Below are positions 1-32,541 of a stretch of DNA of 64,000 nucleotides, in pieces. Origin of the DNA: an uncultured Bacilli bacterium (lineage in GTDB: Bacteria > Bacillota_I > Bacilli_A > RF39 > UBA660); contig CAKOSN010000003.1 in NCBI GenBank assembly GCA_934102255.1, forward strand, positions 31,896 to 95,895, read 5' to 3'. The stretch's first letter is position 1, and every line of letters begins with the position of its first letter. Below the pieces are notes generated by a model. The model saw only the letters and a program-made list of their open reading frames with translations. It was not told the DNA's origin and did no database searches. Made by a program: the position numbers and the translations under genes.

Positions 1-184
1 TATCTAGTTCGAACATGTCTATATAATTAATTATAATGTCATCTATAAAATAGAAGCCTTTATTTTTTAGTAAGTTATATATTTCTATAAAGTTATTTTC
101 ATCGATTGATTTTAAATAATCTAAGTTATAATTACTATATAAGATATCTAAGTATGTATCGTTTAAGTATTTATCAAATATCAT
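1..184 (-). CDS. hypothetical protein, N-terminal part only (runs off the window edge)
   Basis: The reverse strand reads ATG at 184..182 and stays open to position 1 (MIFDKYLNDTYLDILYSNYNLDYLKSIDENNFIEIYNLLKNKGFYFIDD...). Its ATG overlaps the TGA stop of the upstream helicase gene (ATGA), suggesting translational coupling. It is absent from the ORF track because it is truncated. Confidence 0.4.
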   Translation of the reverse strand, partial: MIFDKYLNDTYLDILYSNYNLDYLKSIDENNFIEIYNLLKNKGFYFIDDIIINYIDMFELD

Positions 185-3100
185 TTTTTAGTTACTCCTT
201 TTCCATAAGTATTTATTATATTTTCTAAAGATATACCATATTTTTCTTCAATGTCAGGACTACTCATACTAAAGATATCTACTAATTTTCCAGAGTTATC
301 TACTGGTGAAATCCCATTACTGATTAAGAATCTAATTTTACTTTGTAGTTCTAATAGAGATATATGATCTATGGTTTCTTTATTAAGTTTTTTATCAATA
401 ATAATTAATGCTTCACTATTTTTTAATTCTTCTATATAATTTTCAATCCCTACCTTATTAACCTTAGTATTCCAGACCATGCCAATATTTTCTAAGTCTT
501 TCTGCTCTTCTGGTGATAAATTACCTTTTAGATAATCTCTACGACAATTTCTTATCCATAGTCCAAGGCTTTCTCCTGACTTTGTTTTGTATCTTTGTGG
601 CACTAACAAATCGCCATATTCATTGCGATATTCAACAGCTAATTTGTACCATTTGCTCCAGTTTTCTTCTTTATTAATTGATGCATCCCAGACCATGCTA
701 ATAGATTCTAACTCCTTAATTTTATCTGGTAATAATTTGCCATTTTTATATTTTTGACGCATTTTGCTTATCCATTGTCCAAGATTTTTTCCTGACTTTG
801 TTTCGTAGTCCCTTGGCACTAACAAGTCGCCATATTCATTGTAGTATTCTTCAGCTAATTTGTACCATATTTCTTCTTTATTAATTAATGCATCCCAGAC
901 CATGCCTATAGCCTCTAACTTTTTAATTTTGTCTGGTGATAAATTACCATTTTTATAAACTTTACGTGCTTTGCTTATCCATTGTCCGAGATTTTCACCT
1001 GACTTTGTTTGGTAGTCACTTGACACTAGCAAGTCGCCATGTTCATTACGATACTCAACAGCTAACTTGTACCATTTGTTCCAAATCTCATCTTTATTAA
1101 TTGCCGCATCCCAGACCATGCCAATAGATTCTAACTTTTTAATTTGGTCCGGTGATAATTTTCCTTTTTTATAATCACTTCGGCGATTACTTATCCATTT
1201 TCCAAGGTTTTCTCCTGACTTTGTTTGGTATTTGGTTGGCACTAACAAATCGCCATATTCATTGTAATATTCTTCAGCTAGCCTATACCATTTATTAAAT
1301 AACTCTTCTGGAGATGCTAATTCGTTTATTTCAGCTTCTAGATTTACGAAATCACTAACTGAACTTTCAACCTGCAAAAAGCCTTGTAAAAACTTTTCTT
1401 CTTCATTTTCTGAGTTTTCTAATCTTATTTGTCTTGTTGGTGCATCTATTTTGATATTCCATAAATCTATTTCAGAACCTAATCTTAAAATTTCTTCTAT
1501 TACCTTTTTATTTTTGACGCTATCTAACTCTTTTGAATTATTAAAATATTTAATATAGCGATATAAAATAACATTTAATTTTAAAGCGTAATTTTTCTCT
1601 TCTAAAATATTACTGTTCTTGTTTGGAAGCTTAACACCGTTATCATTTATCCAATCTATAATTGTTTTTAAATCTTCTAAATCATTTATTGGAGATTGGT
1701 CTTTTTTTAAGTTAACGGTATTAATATTGTTAACTAAATCCATTACTACTGGTCGCTCTTCCTCAGTGAATACACGACCATCAGGATAAGAATGAATACA
1801 CCTACCTAACTGCTGATAAAATAAAATTCTAGAATTAACACTTAATGGACGTAGCCAAACAATGCCTTTTACTCCTTTTAAGTGAGCTCCTTCATTTAAT
1901 TTATCCATAACAAATAATAACTTGGGTTTACCGTTGGTATCTTTATTAAAATTATCTAGTTCTTCTTTATTTTTACTATTACTATAATAACTTAGAAGCG
2001 AATTAGTATCGACCATATCTGAAGTATAAGCCTCTATTCTTTCTTTTAAGGTTCTTCTATCTAGTTTCTTCCAACCTTGGTGTCTTGCTATAGTGCCTAC
2101 TACTGTACTATTAAATGTATTTAAAGCTGCTGGTTTATGTTTAATTTTAACCATGTCTAGTAACATAATATTATCTTGTTGGTTACTTAAGAAGTTTTTA
2201 TCTTCACTAGATAATTCTTGTTTTTCAACAATTTTATTATAAATAGACAATAGCTTTTCACCATTAGTCTTCATATATTCATTAGAATATAAGTATTGTC
2301 TAATTAAAATAGTATAATCTTCCATTATCTGAACAGCTTGAGTTCTGCTTATTTTACTGCCGTCTTCACTATTATAATAAGTGCCATCTTTATTACGACC
2401 AACTGGTAAGAAAACAACATATTTACCGTCTTTACTTAAATTGTCACCAAGAATCTTTTCAATACCACTACTTTGTTCAACGCTTCTGCACAATTGTTCG
2501 TACTTAGCAAAAGCTTTAGCTTTTTTCTCGCCATCGTCTAGCATATTAATTTGTTCATACATCTCATCTAAAGTGCCATCACTTTTATAAATGTAAAGAG
2601 GATTTATAAATTTAGGATTAGGTAAAAGTCCGGCTTTGATGGCTGATTCCAAGTTTTCATTAATTGCTAAATGTTTATTTAATTCTATTTCTTCATCAGA
2701 ATAACCAAAATATCTTGCCCAATAAACAGCCATATCTTTATCGTCACGGTCGCGTTCAGGGGTGGCGGTTAAACCAAGGACTTTAATATTCTCTTGCTCT
2801 TGATTTTCCATCAATTCATTAACAAACTTTAACCATTCTGGGGCCCCGCTTCGATGAAGTTCATCTAATATAATAAAGTCATATTTATTATTATATTTTT
2901 CTTTTAATTTGTTTTGCTTTTGGTCTTTTAAATCCTGATAAGTAGTTAAAGTTAAATTAGAAAATAAAGTATGATAATCCGTATAACCAAAGAATTCATA
3001 TATATAATCTTCAATCTGGTTTAAAATGATATCATTGGGAGCGATATAAAGCATTGCGTCATTTTTATGATTTAGCATCTCTTTAATGGCTAGGAAACTT

Positions 3101-4845
3101 TTACCAGAACCAGTGGGCATAACAGCCGTTGCAAAATTCTTTTTAGTAAAAATTTTTTCTGTTTTCTCGTAAGCTCTTCTTTGAAGCTTTCTTAAAGGTA
3201 AATTATATCCTTTTAAATCGTTATAGCCGATATAATCTTTTAATTGGTCTAAAATAATGTCGGTATCACTGGTAAATTCTTCTCTATTTGCTATTAATGA
3301 TGCAAACATCGAAGTAGCAATCGAACCGTCATCACTTAAAGTTTTTACCTTTTCATAATAATTCATAAAATTATGGCTTACTAATGCATTGACTATTTTT
3401 CTTCTTTGAATTTGATTAAAATTAGCCTTTACATTTAAGGTTTCTAAGTCGATTGCATCAATTAGACCGTTCGCATACCATTCTTCTTTATCTTGAGACT
3501 TTGAGTCATTATTACTTATATACGTTGTAAATAACGTATTGAAAGTTGCAGTCGGATTGCTAAACAAATTATACATATCAATGACATTAAGATTATTAAC
3601 ATAATCATAAACATCTTGGTAAGCTTTAGGAAGATATAAAGCAACTGTATCACTTACCTTCATGGCATGATTACCGCTTCTTGCCATTATAGACGGTTCT
3701 ATACCCAATGCATTATCTAAAATACTTTGTAAAGTTGCGTTGTATTTAGAGTTATTGCCCAAAATTTGGCTAAGTAATCTTACTGAATTAAAAGTTCTTA
3801 ATTTAGCTTTAACTAAATACATAGAATTCAAATATAATTCTTTGGCTTCTTGATAGCTTATCTTACCTCCGGTTAGGCTGTATAAATTATCTAAACTTAA
3901 ATCTAAATCTTCTGGTTTAAAATGATTATAATTAATCTCTTTAGTAGCTTGTCTTATTTCATCTAGATGAGTAATTAAATAATTTTTTATTTCTTTTACT
4001 TCATTTGTTTCTGGCACCTGTTGTAAAAGAGCCATTATTTCTACTAGAGAAGTTGGCATTTCAACTATTTTTTCTTTAGGTACATCCTTATAATACTCAA
4101 GCTCGCGCGAAGAGAAAGCTGAACCCATAGTTTGAATAACAAAACGATTAGTTTTACCTTTTACCACTTCAAAATTTAAAACATCCAAAAGCATTACTAG
4201 TTTATCTTTTGCTAGATTTTCGGCATCGCTATAACCTTCATAAGGCTTGCTTTTAATAAATTCTAAACCATTTTGGAACTCTTCACTAGTCTTATCAATA
4301 TATTCTTCAGGTAAAGTTCTCTTTAAATTTTCTAGTTGCTCCTTAGTAGAAATATTATTTAGAGACTCAATATAATACCTTTGCAAATCCGTTAAATCAG
4401 CCTGATGTTCCTCTATATAGGCATTTACTCTTTTTAATATCTCGTCATAAATATATTTACCAGCATTAAAAGTAGTCTTACCAAGTTCATCTTTAGGAAC
4501 TTTTACAATTACATACTTGTCTTCATAATCACTACGACCATACGTCAAACATACATTTGCATCACTACTTAAAGAAATACAATTAGTATCCTTATCATAA
4601 TGTGTTTTAACATGATTAATCATTTCTTCTAAAGTAAGACTTGATTCTTCATTATATCTATCCGTATGATTATAAAATTTACTATCAGTGATAATCTTAC
4701 TAATATGATTATTCTCATCTAAAATAGATTTATCTCTGATACCAGTCATATCCCTTTTATTTAAAGATCTAAAAAAGTAATAATAATTATCATCTTGATA
4801 GCAATTTTTTATATTAAATAATTCATTCATCTTTAACACCTTCAT
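181..4845 (-). CDS. giant multidomain SF2 (DEAD/DEAH, ResIII-like) helicase with an unassigned ~550-aa N-terminus and four C-terminal helicase-associated (HA) domain repeats
   Basis: Walker A is VMPTGSGKSF, motif II ILDELHRSG, motif III GLTATPER and motif VI QQLGRCIH. There are four repeats of ~70 aa of the form W.KWY.LA.EY..E.GDLLVP..Y.TKSG..LG.WI...R..YK.G.L.P..I..LE.IGMVWD, which is the HA-domain pattern. The likely true start is the second ATG at 4830 (MNELF...), preceded by AAGGTG with 6-nt spacing. Confidence 0.85.
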   Translation of the reverse strand: MKVLKMNELFNIKNCYQDDNYYYFFRSLNKRDMTGIRDKSILDENNHISKIITDSKFYNHTDRYNEESSLTLEEMINHVKTHYDKDTNCISLSSDANVCLTYGRSDYEDKYVIVKVPKDELGKTTFNAGKYIYDEILKRVNAYIEEHQADLTDLQRYYIESLNNISTKEQLENLKRTLPEEYIDKTSEEFQNGLEFIKSKPYEGYSDAENLAKDKLVMLLDVLNFEVVKGKTNRFVIQTMGSAFSSRELEYYKDVPKEKIVEMPTSLVEIMALLQQVPETNEVKEIKNYLITHLDEIRQATKEINYNHFKPEDLDLSLDNLYSLTGGKISYQEAKELYLNSMYLVKAKLRTFNSVRLLSQILGNNSKYNATLQSILDNALGIEPSIMARSGNHAMKVSDTVALYLPKAYQDVYDYVNNLNVIDMYNLFSNPTATFNTLFTTYISNNDSKSQDKEEWYANGLIDAIDLETLNVKANFNQIQRRKIVNALVSHNFMNYYEKVKTLSDDGSIATSMFASLIANREEFTSDTDIILDQLKDYIGYNDLKGYNLPLRKLQRRAYEKTEKIFTKKNFATAVMPTGSGKSFLAIKEMLNHKNDAMLYIAPNDIILNQIEDYIYEFFGYTDYHTLFSNLTLTTYQDLKDQKQNKLKEKYNNKYDFIILDELHRSGAPEWLKFVNELMENQEQENIKVLGLTATPERDRDDKDMAVYWARYFGYSDEEIELNKHLAINENLESAIKAGLLPNPKFINPLYIYKSDGTLDEMYEQINMLDDGEKKAKAFAKYEQLCRSVEQSSGIEKILGDNLSKDGKYVVFLPVGRNKDGTYYNSEDGSKISRTQAVQIMEDYTILIRQYLYSNEYMKTNGEKLLSIYNKIVEKQELSSEDKNFLSNQQDNIMLLDMVKIKHKPAALNTFNSTVVGTIARHQGWKKLDRRTLKERIEAYTSDMVDTNSLLSYYSNSKNKEELDNFNKDTNGKPKLLFVMDKLNEGAHLKGVKGIVWLRPLSVNSRILFYQQLGRCIHSYPDGRVFTEEERPVVMDLVNNINTVNLKKDQSPINDLEDLKTIIDWINDNGVKLPNKNSNILEEKNYALKLNVILYRYIKYFNNSKELDSVKNKKVIEEILRLGSEIDLWNIKIDAPTRQIRLENSENEEEKFLQGFLQVESSVSDFVNLEAEINELASPEELFNKWYRLAEEYYNEYGDLLVPTKYQTKSGENLGKWISNRRSDYKKGKLSPDQIKKLESIGMVWDAAINKDEIWNKWYKLAVEYRNEHGDLLVSSDYQTKSGENLGQWISKARKVYKNGNLSPDKIKKLEAIGMVWDALINKEEIWYKLAEEYYNEYGDLLVPRDYETKSGKNLGQWISKMRQKYKNGKLLPDKIKELESISMVWDASINKEENWSKWYKLAVEYRNEYGDLLVPQRYKTKSGESLGLWIRNCRRDYLKGNLSPEEQKDLENIGMVWNTKVNKVGIENYIEELKNSEALIIIDKKLNKETIDHISLLELQSKIRFLISNGISPVDNSGKLVDIFSMSSPDIEEKYGISLENIINTYGKGVTKK
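465..1314 (-). repeat. four tandem ~207-216 bp coding repeats (HA-domain modules) inside the helicase gene
   Basis: The string gcatcccagaccatgc recurs at about 683, 890 and 1106, with a diverged copy at about 470. The flanking DNA is clearly similar at each copy. Confidence 0.8.
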
Positions 4846-4972
4846 CTCAGTAGTATAAATAGCTTTACCAACTGCAATTCATCTTTCTTTATCTTATATA
4901 CTATATCTTATTTTACCATAAATATTAAATTTATATATAGTAATATAGCACTATTTGTTATATAATCAAATC

Positions 4973-5123
4973 AAGCAATAGCAATTTGGTTTTAAACCAC
5001 TTTGATGAGTCATCAAGGATATTTAATAAATAGATTATGTGATTATATTACTCCAAGTGATTACTCTAAACGTTATTTAGTTAAATCACTCTTCATAATA
5101 TAATATCACATCAAGTATTGCTT
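4973..5123 (+). ncRNA. predicted retron msr-msd non-coding RNA
   Basis: - Inverted repeats: a1 AAGCAATA (4973-4980) and a2 TATTGCTT (5116-5123).
- G residues lie just 3' of a1 (4981, 4988-4989) and are candidate branching G.
- Short msr-like hairpins: GGTT..AACC (4988-4998) and TTGATGA/TCATCAA (5002-5016).
- A long imperfect msd-like hairpin spans 5038-5110 (TGTGAT...ATCACA outer stem; AGTGATT/AATCACT and CTAAA/TTTAG inner stems).
- TATAAT at 4961-4966 sits just upstream.
- The element ends 5 nt before the RT ribosome-binding site AGGAGG (5129-5134). Confidence 0.6.
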
Positions 5124-5142
5124 ATTTTAGGAGGTAATATGT

Positions 5143-6099
5143 ATGTGGCAACATTTAACTAAAAGTAAAATTAACGAATTCATATTATCTCTTAATCTTA
5201 CCTTTTATGAAAAACTTTCTGATAAAGAGAAATTAAAACTTATATATACAATTAGTAATCATGCTGAAAAGCATTATAAAGTATTTAAAATACCTAAAAG
5301 AAATGGTGGCTACCGTACTATTTACGAACCCGATTATACTTTAAAAAGTATTCAAAGAAATATTCTAAATAATGTTTTAAATGAAAGAATTACTTCTTTG
5401 TACGCTAAAGCTTATAAAAAAGGTTTAAGTCTAGTCGATAATGCTACACCCCATTTAAATAAAAAAGTAATTCTAAAACTTGATATTAAAGATTTTTTTC
5501 CTAGTATTGATTTTTTAAAAGTCTATAAAAAAGCTTTTCCAAGAAACATCTATCCTGAGGCCGTTGCTAGTCTTTTAACTAATCTTACTACTTATAATAA
5601 TTTTTTACCCCAAGGTACTCCTACTTCCAGTTATATATCCAATTTAGTTTTAAGAAGTTTTGATATTAAAGTTGGTAACTTTTGCGAAGATAGAAATATT
5701 TCTTATACCCGATACTGTGATGATATGACTTTTTCTGGTGATTTTGATACTAATGAAGTAATAACTTTCGTTAAGAATGCTTTATATAAAGAAGGATTCA
5801 TCTTAAATAAACAAAAAATAAAAATTATAAAACCTAATAAAGCTCAGATAGTAACCGGTATAGTTTGTAATGAAAAATTAAGTATTCCCCGTCCTTATAA
5901 AAAGGCTATCCGCCAAAGTATTTATTATATCAATAAATATGGTCTTGATAATCACTTAAAACATATTAAAAGTTTAGATGATAAAACTACCTATCTTAAT
6001 AAATTATATGGTCAAGTATTATTTGTTTTACAAATAGAAAAAAACGATTCAGAATTTTTAAATTATAAAAATACCCTAATTAAATTAAAAGAAAACTAA
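5143..6099 (+). CDS. retron-type reverse transcriptase
   Basis: The protein is 318 aa, a typical retron RT size. Motifs: NGGYRTIYEP (RT1/2), LDIKDFFPSI (motif A), LPQGTPTSSYISNL (motif B), YTRYCDDMTFSG (catalytic YxDD), LNKQKIKII (motif D) and QIVTGIVCNEK (retron-typical VTG). There is no maturase or endonuclease extension. Confidence 0.85.
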   Translation: MWQHLTKSKINEFILSLNLTFYEKLSDKEKLKLIYTISNHAEKHYKVFKIPKRNGGYRTIYEPDYTLKSIQRNILNNVLNERITSLYAKAYKKGLSLVDNATPHLNKKVILKLDIKDFFPSIDFLKVYKKAFPRNIYPEAVASLLTNLTTYNNFLPQGTPTSSYISNLVLRSFDIKVGNFCEDRNISYTRYCDDMTFSGDFDTNEVITFVKNALYKEGFILNKQKIKIIKPNKAQIVTGIVCNEKLSIPRPYKKAIRQSIYYINKYGLDNHLKHIKSLDDKTTYLNKLYGQVLFVLQIEKNDSEFLNYKNTLIKLKEN

Positions 6100-6140
6100 C
6101 CCTATAGAATACTTTCATACTCTATTAAGGTTTAGTTTTT
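6098..6140. terminator. hairpin plus T-run between the convergent RT and transglutaminase-like genes
   Basis: AACC.TATAGA...TCTATTAAGGTT forms an imperfect stem and is followed by TTTAGTTTTTTT. Confidence 0.35.
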
Positions 6141-7076
6141 TTAACAAGCTTTACGATAAATATTTAAAACACGTTCTTCAAACTTAGCGCGGTAGCATCT
6201 TCTACTATCCACCATATAGCCAACATAGCCATTATAATTAGCCACTTTTTCTTTAATACGCTTACGGCTTAATAAGTCATTAGCAACATCTTTTACCTCT
6301 TCATCACTTAAATATATAAAATCCATTTCACTATAAATTCTTTTAATATCAATCGTATTATTAGATTTATTATACTCAATATATAAATACTCATTAATAC
6401 CATTGGAACTATTACCAGTTGCAATAAGTAAAAATGAAGTTCCATCATTTCTTATCATACTTACTGTGTTATTATTATAGCTACAAGGCATATTATTATC
6501 AATATATACTGGATTTAGACCTATCATGGCTATTTCTTTATTAACCGTATAATCATATTGACATGGAATCGTACAATTTGGATACATATCAATATTTTTT
6601 AAAGCCGTTTTAATTTGTTCACTATTTAAAACACTTAAAGGAAACATCGTCTCTTCTTTTTCTCTTTTTAAATTACGATGAACATTACCATAAAACTCCT
6701 GACTATTATCAGAAGCAAAATATTCAAAACTACATTTATTATACATTTTTTCACTAATATCCCAAGTCAAATCAAGACCATAATACCTACCGTTTATCTC
6801 CAAAACATTGAAGGCATGATGATGTTGTTTGTTTTGATAATAACAATTAACCCCTAAGCGGTCCATTATTTCTTTATAAACAAGAGCAAAGCCCGCACAA
6901 ACTCCTTCACCATTAACTAAAACCATTAAATTTCTTGATTTTACTCTATCAGCATATTCATTATAATATAAATTTACACATAATCTTTGATAAACAAAAA
7001 TTGCTTTTTCTAACTCTGACCAAACAGGATTTATTAAACGTTCAATCTCTTCCAAAAAATCTAAAATTTCTAGCAT
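6141..7076 (-). CDS. transglutaminase-like cysteine peptidase-fold protein (possibly the 3' part of a nonsense-interrupted gene)
   Basis: Core Cys-His-Asp pattern: GEGVCAGFALVYKEIMDRLGV ... HHAFNVLEINGRYYGLDLTWD. The frame stays open upstream to an ATG at 7316 apart from one TAG at 7265..7263 (see findings). Confidence 0.7.
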   Translation of the reverse strand: MLEILDFLEEIERLINPVWSELEKAIFVYQRLCVNLYYNEYADRVKSRNLMVLVNGEGVCAGFALVYKEIMDRLGVNCYYQNKQHHHAFNVLEINGRYYGLDLTWDISEKMYNKCSFEYFASDNSQEFYGNVHRNLKREKEETMFPLSVLNSEQIKTALKNIDMYPNCTIPCQYDYTVNKEIAMIGLNPVYIDNNMPCSYNNNTVSMIRNDGTSFLLIATGNSSNGINEYLYIEYNKSNNTIDIKRIYSEMDFIYLSDEEVKDVANDLLSRKRIKEKVANYNGYVGYMVDSRRCYRAKFEERVLNIYRKAC

Positions 7077-7317
7077 TTCCCATTTAGTATAATAAGTTCT
7101 TTCTTGATAATCTTCCTTAGCAAATTTCTTTTTTACTGGATTTAATCCGCCTAGAATACTAATCGTAATATTATCAGATAATAACTCTACTTTTTCCTTT
7201 GTTAAACCCTTCGTATTTTTAAATACTAGAGCTATCTTTTTTCTTCTTGCTAGTTCATTATACTAATTAATAGTTTTTAAATCTAACTCCCTAACATTCA
7301 AATTAATTTTTTGCATT

Positions 7318-7863
7318 TTAATCCCCCACTTGTATTTTTTCTCTTATTTCTATATTAATATTATTTAACTTATCTAAATAATCTTTATTTTTCCTATATT
7401 GTTCTTCTGATACTGCAAGCGTCCTTATTTCATAATTATCAACATTAATACTAGATACTAAAGCTTGATTAATTATTAAAGTTTCTGCCTTTATCTTCAC
7501 AAAAGGTATAACCATATTTTTAATAGTAATAGTCTTATAAACATAATCTTGATTTAATTTTAAATTAGTATTATCTAAGGTAATATTTTTAATATTAATA
7601 GGTTCATCAGTACCCACTATCTCACAATTAACTAAACGCAAATCTTGTAAATTATGACATCCCATAATATAACTGATATCATCACTACTCAAACATAAAT
7701 TACATAGTGTTAAATTTTCTAAATTAGGTAAGCTTAAAATTTCTTCTAATTTAACATGAGCAATCGCCCCTGCAATAGTAAATCGATTAATAACTAAACT
7801 CTTAATAGCAAAGTAATCATTATTACAAACTCTTAAAGCTTTATTTATACTATCTGTAATCAT
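7318..7863 (-). CDS. leucine-rich-repeat-like protein
   Basis: Repeated L..L.L..C/N.I pattern: LPNLENLTLCNLCLSSDDISYIMGCHNLQDLRLVNCEI..., NIKNITLDNTNLKL. There is no signal peptide. Confidence 0.55.
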   Translation of the reverse strand: MITDSINKALRVCNNDYFAIKSLVINRFTIAGAIAHVKLEEILSLPNLENLTLCNLCLSSDDISYIMGCHNLQDLRLVNCEIVGTDEPINIKNITLDNTNLKLNQDYVYKTITIKNMVIPFVKIKAETLIINQALVSSINVDNYEIRTLAVSEEQYRKNKDYLDKLNNINIEIREKIQVGD

Positions 7864-22689: not shown

Positions 22690-23045
22690 ATAACTTAGTA
22701 AGCCGTGTTCTGTACTAGCATGCTAGTGACAAATATTTATCTAATCTATACAATTATGTATAAACTTTTCTACGCCGTTTGTTTCCTTTGTAGAAACTCT
22801 CCTACCAAATTTGGATTTCTTACTCGCGGGGTTTACCACGTTCCACCTACTTTATTTCTAAAGCAACTCGTCTCTTTGGCACTTTATGTCTAATATAACC
22901 ATTTGAGGTCACCTCGACGCCGTCAGTTAAAAACTGCCTAAGGTTATTGGCCTTAGCAACGAACCCTATAGCCATTTCAGGTCTATGTAAGCACGGACTT
23001 TCCTCAAGTATAATAAATATACCAGCATTTGTCTTTCTAAGTTAT
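22690..23045 (-). ncRNA. rnpB: RNase P RNA (bacterial, probably type B)
   Basis: The reverse strand carries GAGGAAAGTCCGTGC (P4 5' strand, 23005..22991) and ACAGAACACGGCTTA (P4 3' strand, about 22714..22700). P1 pairs ATAACTTAG (23045..23037) with CTAAGTTAT (22698..22690). It lies next to gpsB as in B. subtilis. Confidence 0.85.
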
Positions 23046-31461: not shown

Positions 31462-32541
31462 TTGAAAAAAATAGATTATAAATTATTTTTCTTAAGTATT
31501 ATTGCCGGTCTTTTAGGAATTATTATGATATATTCTGCTAGTAATATTTGGGCTGAATATAAGTTTAATGACCCTTTAAAATATGTAAAACATCAAGCTT
31601 TATTTTTTATAATAGGTATTCTTATTATGATAATTTTATCTAAATTTGATTATAAAAAATACTATAAGTATGCTAATAAAATTTTACTTATCTGTTTAGT
31701 TTTACTTATTCTTGTTCTTATCCCCGGTATTGGTAAGGTAAGAAATGGCGCTAGAAGTTGGTTTGGCATTGGCTCTTTTGGTATTCAACCCTCAGAATTT
31801 GCTAAAATTGGTTTAATAATTTTTGTTTCTAAATATTTAGCTAATAATGATTCTTCGGTAAAAGATGTTGTTAAAGGCATATTTCCTATTCTTGGTGTTA
31901 TATTTTTATTCTTCGGTCTTATTATGTTAGAGCCTGACTTCGGTCAAGGTATGGTTATTGTTCTTACTTTAATCATGATTATTTTTATATCTGGTGCTAA
32001 AATTTCTTTCTTTGTTAAATGCGGTATTCTAGGTCTTTTTGGTATAGTTGGTCTTATTATAGTAGCACCCTATCGTCTAGCTAGAATCATTTCCTTTGTT
32101 AATCCCTGGGTTGACCCCTTAGGTAGTGGTTTTCAAATTATTCAAAGTTTATATGCCATTGGTCCCGGTGGCCTTTTAGGTCTTGGTTTTGGTTCATCTA
32201 TTCAAAAACATTTCTATTTACCAGAACCGCAAACTGACTTTATCTTTTCTATTATTTCTGAAGAATTTGGTTTTTTAGGAGTTCTCGTTGTTACTAGTAT
32301 TTTTATGCTTCTATTCTACTTTTCTATTAAAATCAGTATGCAAGCTAAAAATCTTTTTGCTAAATATTTAAGTTTCGGTCTTTCTTTTGGTATTTTAATT
32401 CAAGCTTTACTTAACCTCTGTGTAGTAGTTGGTTTAATTCCGGTTACTGGTGTAACTTTACCCTTCTTTAGTTATGGTGGCTCTAGTCTTTTAGTTTCCT
32501 TTGCCTCTATTGGTATTATTTTAAATATTAGTAAGAGTTAA
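31462..32541 (+). CDS. ftsW: SEDS family peptidoglycan glycosyltransferase FtsW/RodA/SpoVE
   Basis: SWFGIGSFGIQPSEFAKI, PDFGQG, LPEPQTDFIFS and GVTLPFFSYGGSS signatures. Confidence 0.9.
   Translation: MKKIDYKLFFLSIIAGLLGIIMIYSASNIWAEYKFNDPLKYVKHQALFFIIGILIMIILSKFDYKKYYKYANKILLICLVLLILVLIPGIGKVRNGARSWFGIGSFGIQPSEFAKIGLIIFVSKYLANNDSSVKDVVKGIFPILGVIFLFFGLIMLEPDFGQGMVIVLTLIMIIFISGAKISFFVKCGILGLFGIVGLIIVAPYRLARIISFVNPWVDPLGSGFQIIQSLYAIGPGGLLGLGFGSSIQKHFYLPEPQTDFIFSIISEEFGFLGVLVVTSIFMLLFYFSIKISMQAKNLFAKYLSFGLSFGILIQALLNLCVVVGLIPVTGVTLPFFSYGGSSLLVSFASIGIILNISKS

Follow-up and report, generated by a model that had tools for sequence, protein, structure and literature searches.

A very probable stand-alone retron of the Ec107 (Retron-Eco5) family in the genome of an uncultured gut Bacilli bacterium

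We analysed a stretch of 64,000 nucleotides from an uncultured Bacilli bacterium of the RF39 lineage (contig CAKOSN010000003.1, forward strand, positions 31,896 to 95,895), hereafter the window; coordinates count from its first nucleotide. Its plus strand very probably carries, from about 4961 to 6142, a stand-alone retron of the Ec107 (Retron-Eco5) family which consists of a promoter, an msr-msd non-coding RNA (ncRNA) of about 150 nt and a 318-aa reverse transcriptase (RT), and which has no effector gene. A first-pass annotation of the same sequence had proposed a retron RT preceded by its own msr/msd ncRNA, and this core reading is upheld by the RT models, by covariation and by homology to Ec107. 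It had also called the retron complete-looking. This is true for the msr-msd-RT cassette, which is whole, but not for a tripartite system, since there is neither an effector gene nor a fused domain.

The RT has the catalytic box YCDD at residues 191-194 and the region Y motif VTG at residues 237-239, both of which had been recognised in the first pass, as well as the region X motif NATPH (NAxxH) at residues 100-104. When the protein was aligned with 21 relatives of 54-82% identity, Y191, D193 and D194 of the catalytic box, N100 and H104 of region X and V237, T238 and G239 of region Y were invariant. NAxxH and VTG are retron-specific motifs, for which we used published definitions (PMC6868368; 10.64898/2026.05.14.725207), and YCDD was noted as a variant of the Ec107 RT (PMC6868368). 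The best PADLOC model for the window RT was RT_Ec107-like, which matched over the full length (E = 1.7e-127, 423 bits), and the next models were RT_III-A with 347.5 bits and below. The Ec107 RT itself reached 437 bits on RT_Ec107-like. In a direct comparison the two enzymes were 42% identical over 309 aa (E = 8e-90, 259 bits). The solved structures at the top of the match list were all retron RTs, with Ec86 in first place (E = 2e-39, 139 bits). Pfam recognised RVT_1 alone (74 bits) and no extra or fused effector domain. Judged by hidden Markov model (HMM) scores and pairwise identity, the window RT appears to group with the Ec107 RT and not with other retron types.

We also considered that the RT might come from a diversity-generating retroelement, a group II intron or a defence system of the Abi or DRT/UG kind, with fortuitous hairpins in front of it. 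Weak matches of this kind were observed with the NCBIfam models of Drt3a (58 bits, cut-off 200), Drt2 (51 bits, cut-off 390) and group II intron RT (45 bits, cut-off 300), but all of them are far under their cut-offs, whereas retron models gave 222-423 bits. Within NCBIfam the retron models scored 186-222 bits, with retron_St85_RT at 222. An Rfam scan of 4000-7500 at E <= 10 returned no group II intron and no other RNA family; Rfam 15 itself holds no matching retron ncRNA family. Moreover, the upstream RNA covaries and is homologous to the Ec107 msr-msd, as described below. A non-retron origin is already refuted by these results and we give it practically no weight. The RT groups with retrons, as was first annotated, and not with the enzymes of group II introns or of Abi or DRT systems (423 bits in PADLOC and 222 with retron_St85_RT, versus 58 and 45).

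The whole msr-msd fits into the 297-nt gap between the RT gene and the upstream 1554-aa gene. The 8-bp a1/a2 repeat of the first-pass annotation was found at exactly the coordinates given there, with perfect pairing, and the G that it had noticed just after a1 is G4981, invariant in 69 sequences. Its two msr hairpins, drawn at 4988-4998 and 5002-5016, were recovered within 1-2 nt, and the msd hairpin that it drew at 5038-5110 was recovered as well (all positions in Table 1). Msr hairpin 2 and the msd hairpin are separated by a spacer of 18 nt. The fold check that it had proposed for 4960-5135 gave a minimum free energy of -35.3 kcal/mol and z = -3.48, and none of 200 shuffled sequences folded as well. 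Inverted repeats are abundant in this DNA of 27% GC, with 29 pairs in 315 nt. Since an 8-bp inverted repeat is not rare at 27% GC, the window alone is moderate evidence for the ncRNA. The comparative data are its decisive support.

To collect relatives, one genome per GTDB species was scanned, which gave at least 544 loci, and the best 80 were fetched. Nearly all of them come from metagenome-assembled genomes of uncultured gut Bacilli, "Tenericutes" or Erysipelotrichaceae, with Blautia in addition, and their RTs are 47-83% identical to that of the window. The RT open reading frame (ORF) covers the entire query in 78 of the 80. The longest RT ORF is partial in L072 (~6001-6948, from residue 144) and L080 (~6001-6924, from residue 70), while tblastn matches there are full length; these two genes are probably frameshifted or interrupted, or reflect assembly errors. 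Where the upstream sequence was long enough, the RT is preceded by a non-coding stretch of at least ~178 nt; the exceptions are two Blautia loci, in which a 98-aa ORF, probably spurious, overlaps the ncRNA.

Nearly all loci share one layout, in which a -10 box is followed by a1, an invariant G, a variable hairpin, a GAGUC hairpin, a long msd stem, a2 and the ATG of the RT. In this layout the a1/a2 stem is perfect and 5-12 bp long. A TATAAT or TACAAT box lies at most 22 nt 5' of a1 in 58 of 70 loci (median 6 nt before a1), and 45 of these boxes have an extended TGn. The distance from the end of a2 to the RT start codon is 13-23 nt in 66 of the 70. In L004, L052, L072 and L074 the msr-msd is intact, and 65-209 nt lie between it and the RT start, which suggests insertions at this place.

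We next looked for compensatory changes in an alignment of 69 distinct upstream sequences made with MAFFT (A2). A search for the longest a1/a2 stem had given spurious AT-rich stems, and arms were therefore identified by a following G and at least two G/C pairs. The cores of a1 and a2 change together: GCAATA/TATTGC, GCAGTA/TACTGC, GCAACA/TGTTGC, GCAGGTA/TACCTGC, GCAAATA/TATTTGC and GCGGTA/TACCGC were all observed. RNAalifold run on the MAFFT alignment predicted a1/a2, hairpin 2 and the msd helices, with compensatory changes in 22 of 24 pairs. With a hand-written structure of 39 pairs, 93.3% of the cells pair, versus 32-48% when the 3' partners were slid by 1-3 columns. Both sides had changed in 36 of the 39 pairs, and none of 500 shuffles matched any observed measure. 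When the alignment was fitted to the covariance model, 95% of the cells paired and compensatory changes were present in 38 of the 39 pairs.

This agreement extends to each helix. In a1/a2 all seven core pairs show compensatory changes and 98% of the cells pair; in msr hairpin 1 the values are 4/4 modelled pairs and 84-87%, and in msr hairpin 2 they are 7/8 pairs and 99%. The msd helices pair in 87-98% of the cells, with compensatory changes in 19 of 20 pairs (MAFFT) or 20 of 20 (model-fitted). The G, A, U and C of the GAGUC motif in hairpin 2 are invariant alignment columns. Strong covariation of the a1/a2 and msd stems, which the first-pass annotation had named as a check on its reading, is thus present in about 70 homologous loci.

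The sublineage of the window (the window and L001-L005) has a reduced msd. Its inner hairpin (5064-5084 in the window, A2 columns 176-216) reads CUAAAC...AUUUAG versus CUACAC...GUGUAG in the family consensus, and the sublineage lacks a second inner msd hairpin (CGC...GCG) that Ec107 and most relatives have. The Blautia loci L045, L071 and L074 have 53-54% GC and keep the GCGAGUCGC hairpin and the overall structure, with 39-51 bits on the covariance model R1 introduced below. L074 comes from a cultured strain, Blautia hansenii MSK.15.26. Such GC-rich versions are useful outgroups for covariation analysis.

R1 was built from Bacilli loci without any proteobacterial sequence. In the window, which is part of the training set, it gave a single strong match at 4974-5122 (105.6 bits, E = 6e-17), and the next one had 14 bits. 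A match just 5' of the RT was observed in 75 of the 80 loci. Loci on which the model was not trained are among these, for example L047 (161.6 bits), L026, L030, L024, L055, L023 and, from Blautia with 53% GC, L045 and L071. R1 was also run on retron loci of other types on viral contigs, and there was no match in the four best-matching IMG/VR loci.

For the comparison with E. coli, Ec107 was located through native msd fragments taken from primer sequences (supplement of PMC8563936). Of 5426 complete E. coli genomes, 380 carry it, in every case on the chromosome. In strain WCHEC020031 (L089) the order is pyrE, ncRNA, RT (319 aa) and slmA, with the retron at 2442-3627, and this arrangement is in line with an earlier account, in which Ec107 is a small intergenic insertion without a mobile element in its vicinity (PMC6868368). 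In the RefSeq annotation of L089, the one genome inspected, the RT is a "reverse transcriptase family protein" and the ncRNA is not annotated. R1 finds the validated Ec107 msr-msd at 2452-2625 of L089 with 54 bits (E = 1e-8), and this is the only match above noise in 5 kb. In the R1 alignment GGCAAUA-G of Ec107 falls on AGCAAUA-G of the window, the GCGAGUCGC hairpin of Ec107 falls on the AUGAGUCAU hairpin of the window, and G4981 is aligned with the G that follows GGCAATA in Ec107. Because of the R1 match and the superposed a1 core and hairpin, we consider the two ncRNAs homologous and not just alike in shape. By R1 the window ncRNA appears to belong to the structural class of Ec107.

The two elements therefore can be compared part by part. 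They share the size of the RT (319 aa in Ec107, 318 in the window), its 42% identity and unusual YCDD box, and nearly equal scores on the RT_Ec107-like model. Their ncRNAs agree in overall layout, in the a1 core (GCAAUA, with the branching G right behind it) and in the msr hairpin GCGAGUCGC. Both are cassettes of ~1.2-1.3 kb that lie between housekeeping genes, without a linked effector and without prophage context. They differ in the host, which is a gammaproteobacterium for Ec107 and a 27% GC uncultured gut Bacilli bacterium for the window. The a1/a2 stem of Ec107, read from its sequence, has ~15 bp versus 8 bp in the window, where the msd is also shorter and simpler; the predicted msDNA is ~90 nt instead of 107 nt, and the second inner hairpin is the part that is missing. 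Ec107 is co-oriented with the pyrE gene upstream of it, whereas the window cassette is flanked by a convergent and a divergent gene.

Retron-Eco1 (Ec86) is the best-characterised retron, a type II-A system that is prophage-borne and has a nucleoside deoxyribosyltransferase-like effector. Its RT is the closest solved structure by sequence, and it shares a1/a2, the branching G, msr hairpins and an msd hairpin with the window element, but the RT is far more distant than that of Ec107 (139 versus 259 bits). Type III-A retrons provide the next-best RT models (347.5 bits for RT_III-A in PADLOC). They differ in having a phosphoribosyltransferase (PRTase)-like effector, with or without a winged-helix protein; genes of both kinds are absent beside the window RT and among the recurrent neighbours of the 80 relatives.

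To see which genes accompany the RT, all ORFs of at least 80 aa in the 80 fetched loci and the window were clustered. No conserved neighbour gene was found in this set: the largest non-RT cluster occurred in only 9 loci, in varying positions and on varying strands. The immediate neighbours of the RT fell into 56 clusters upstream and 56 downstream. The recurrent ones look like unrelated housekeeping genes (CTP synthase, P-type ATPase, LepA, LexA, Lon, a ZIP-type transporter), where the names are our reading of the protein sequences and Lon alone was assigned by its Pfam domains. No PRTase-type gene or other common functional theme was found among them. In the 80 loci and the window, the RT has no specifically associated effector or accessory gene.

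An effector could still be sought in the genes that abut the cassette, the 1554-aa helicase (181-4845) upstream and the 311-aa protein (6141-7076) downstream, which would make the element a tripartite anti-phage retron. In addition to its position, the helicase weakly matches the PADLOC models of Cas3, GajB and a type IV methyl-directed restriction enzyme (E 1e-4 to 2e-7). However, both genes lie on the minus strand, opposite to the RT, while the effector of a retron as a rule shares both operon and orientation with the RT, and the two evolve together (PMC7736814). The helicase is beside the RT in none of the 80 other loci, and the 311-aa gene in one of them, the closest relative L001. In L002-L005, whose RTs are 67-76% identical to that of the window, the RT directly adjoins Lon, and LepA is upstream in L002, L003 and L005; these are the direct neighbours in the closer relatives. 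The missing conservation largely refutes an adjacent effector, which we regard as highly improbable. Retrons have been divided into 13 types defined by the effector (Mestre et al. 2020, PMC7736814). The tripartite types I-XIII were rejected for the window element: the flanking genes are on the opposite strand and unconserved, and the RT has no fused domain.

The family was also not found to be phage-borne in IMG/VR, since the best relative of the RT there is 41% identical and R1 detected no msr-msd in the four best loci, which were the ones scanned. The family is chromosomal and sits among housekeeping genes in dozens of different settings, and viral contigs hold no close relatives of it.

The absence of an effector might also mean that the locus is a decaying remnant, a retron which lost its effector and is not functional. 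The apparently interrupted RT frame in 2 of the 80 relatives (L072 and L080) and the extra 65-209 nt between ncRNA and RT in four loci would agree with this. Against it, the window RT is intact and its catalytic and retron-specific residues are invariant across species at 47-83% identity, 36-38 of the 39 RNA pairs are preserved by compensatory changes, the promoter, ribosome-binding site (RBS) and spacing are conserved, and the msr motifs persist from E. coli to Bacilli. Decay is therefore very unlikely in our opinion. The cassette is kept by selection without a linked toxin. It therefore serves either in defence, by way of a partner encoded at another site of the genome, or in something other than defence.

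How the stand-alone Ec107-family retron would work can be outlined from these parts. One transcript starting at ~4973, behind the TATAAT at 4961-4966, would span the ncRNA and the RT gene; if this box acts as a promoter, the 5' end is probably at ~4972-4974. The RNA folds by pairing a1 with a2, as the covariation shows, and encloses two msr hairpins and the msd hairpin. The RT would bind the msr, and the hairpin with GAGUC at 5000-5018 is likely its recognition element, judging from its conservation and from other retrons. By homology to Ec107, the 2'-OH of G4981 would prime the copying of the msd from 5115 leftwards, with a stop few nt 3' of hairpin 2. Trimming of the template by host RNase H would then leave a branched RNA-DNA molecule with an msDNA hairpin of ~90 nt.

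The msDNA of Ec107, as reportedly described by Herzer et al. in 1992, has 107 nt of DNA and 75 nt of RNA, linked at the G that is residue 18 of the RNA. On L089 these numbers would correspond to an RNA start at 2442, a branch at G2459, a DNA template at 2509-2615 and an 8-bp 3' DNA/RNA overlap, which is self-consistent, and we take the 107-nt msDNA to end ~6 nt past msr hairpin 2. The same geometry applied to the window predicts G4981 as the branch, an msDNA of ~90 nt and a template at ~5026-5115. The reverse complement of this predicted template folds as a DNA hairpin (-12.9 kcal/mol, z = -4.6).

Several points weigh against our interpretation or narrow it. The segment ends in A2 were chosen by a1/a2 complementarity, and the pairing percentage of this one helix is too high for that reason; the co-variation of a1/a2 from class to class and the other helices are unaffected. 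The branch point, the ~90 nt size and the termination site would all be transferred from Ec107, the only one of the two elements for which msDNA is demonstrated. The promoter and terminator are putative assignments by consensus and conservation, and the window has no clear -35 box. Finally, the stand-alone call covers 64 kb of the genome, and an effector may be encoded elsewhere.

The last point leads to the reading in which the element is an anti-phage retron with an effector or a guarded host protein elsewhere in the genome and the msDNA-RT complex serves as the sensor. We consider this possible, although on balance unlikely. The sister RT group type III-A uses PRTase-like effectors, and stand-alone msr-msd-RT cassettes are reported in the Ec107 branch of RT clade 2, which shares a node with PRTase-linked RTs and for which Mestre et al. 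suggest the loss of a linked PRTase-like partner (PMC7736814). Strong purifying selection on ncRNA and RT implies a function. On the other hand, the genomes of orphan retrons mostly have no homologues of known retron-associated proteins (PMC7736814), PADLOC recognised no defence genes beside the cassette, and relatives were seen neither on viral contigs nor in an obvious defence-island or prophage context. Phage defence was never demonstrated for Ec107; Millman et al. assayed the E. coli retrons for it "excluding Ec107". The anti-phage role given to the window element in the first pass is an assumption.

A second reading of the function, which we hold only tentatively and think rather improbable, is that the retron is a self-sufficient unit with no dedicated toxin anywhere in the genome. 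Selection would maintain it in hundreds of gut Bacilli species with small genomes because the work is done by the msDNA-RT complex itself. Such a unit might be a decoy or a sensor that acts on some conserved pathway of the host, or it might regulate starvation or stress, at which the starvation-induced expression of Ec107 hints.

The lineage itself is known. In the SPIRE survey of 2026, 178 of the 192 members of clade2_Ec107like (93%) are from Bacillota, the clade is strongly host-associated, has no recurrent accessory modules and was rated low in novelty, and Ec107_like is among the ncRNA models detected most often (10.64898/2026.05.14.725207). The Firmicute host, which the first-pass annotation had thought worth attention, is what this clade would lead one to expect. 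The window element shares with it the best HMM and ncRNA model class, the Bacillota host, the human-gut source and the absence of a recurrent accessory gene. No defining feature separates them; what the sublineage of the window has of its own is the reduced msd and the altered inner hairpin. The element fits the published description in every respect tested, and the lineage, its bias towards Bacillota and the gut, and the absence of accessory genes are already published.

Table 1. Features of the retron cassette in the window
Feature	Position	Strand	Basis and remarks
Probable -10 box TATAAT	4961-4966	+	Read from sequence; 6 nt 5' of a1
msr-msd ncRNA, a1 to a2	4973-5123	+	Fold, covariation, covariance-model match, Ec107 homology
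a1 arm AAGCAATA	4973-4980	+	Perfect pairing with 5116-5123
Predicted branching (priming) G	4981	+	Directly 3' of a1; invariant column in 69/69 aligned sequences
msr hairpin 1, 5-bp stem	4987-4999	+	Fold; sequence and length vary among relatives
msr hairpin 2, 8-bp stem, AGU triloop	5000-5018	+	Window hairpin AUGAGUCAU; GAGUC motif 5007-5011
Predicted msd template, ~90 nt	5026-5115	+	Copied right to left; right end is the base 5' of a2; left end +/- 10 nt
Long imperfect msd hairpin	5037-5111	+	Fold; three modelled helices
a2 arm TATTGCTT	5116-5123	+	Complement of a1
RBS AGGAGG of the RT gene	5129-5134	+	Read from sequence; 8 nt 5' of ATG 5143
Retron RT ORF	5143-6099	+	318 aa; ORF listing, PADLOC full length, Pfam RVT_1
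Weak terminator-like hairpin and T run	6094-6142	+	Shared with convergent gene 6141-7076; -8.4 kcal/mol, z = -1.85

Where the RT gene begins, GGAGG is kept at the same site in the upstream sequences of the relatives, and the ATG at 5143 opens a peptide MW... that they conserve. Another ATG, out of frame and 4 nt 5' of the RT start (5139-5141), opens an ORF of seven codons closed by TAA and is closer to the RBS than the real start. It may be of no relevance or may modulate translation of the RT. At the other end of the cassette, the hairpin at 6094-6142 could act as a terminator, which we propose with low confidence; a consensus terminator scan did not flag it.

The upstream 1554-aa protein has an N-terminal part of ~540 aa without a family match, a ResIII/DEAD helicase core at residues 549-700 and then four C-terminal repeats of the helicase-associated (HA) domain. 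Metagenome contigs frequently break off inside its gene. The 311-aa protein partly matched MAG6410, a family of transglutaminase-related lipoproteins (52.6 bits in NCBIfam, far under the cut-off), and a 181-aa protein at 7318-7863 (minus strand) gave a faint leucine-rich-repeat-like match only. Neither of these two proteins matched a PADLOC model. Their genes are positioned between the RT and Lon in the window and are absent where the RT of relatives abuts Lon. Eight metagenome contigs with an identical RT are arranged as the window is.

The wider window is ordinary chromosome, with Lon, a hibernation factor and RNase P class B. The RNase P RNA is at 22696-23042 on the minus strand (224.6 bits), in keeping with a Bacillota chromosome. 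The 64 kb yielded no tRNA genes.

The locus, with an ncRNA placed to almost single-nucleotide precision, is a clean and well-delimited case of the one large retron group that is outside the tripartite model of RT, ncRNA and toxin; Ec107 itself has been on record for more than 30 years. Mutagenesis can be aimed precisely at the msr motifs that E. coli has in common with gut Bacilli (GCAAUA with a G behind it, and the GCGAGUCGC hairpin), and this conserved core makes the function of retrons without an effector experimentally approachable. The compact cassette of ~1.2 kb might serve as a DNA-producing module for low-GC Firmicutes. If the self-sufficient unit proved true, it would mean a retron function outside the toxin-antitoxin-like model of abortive infection.

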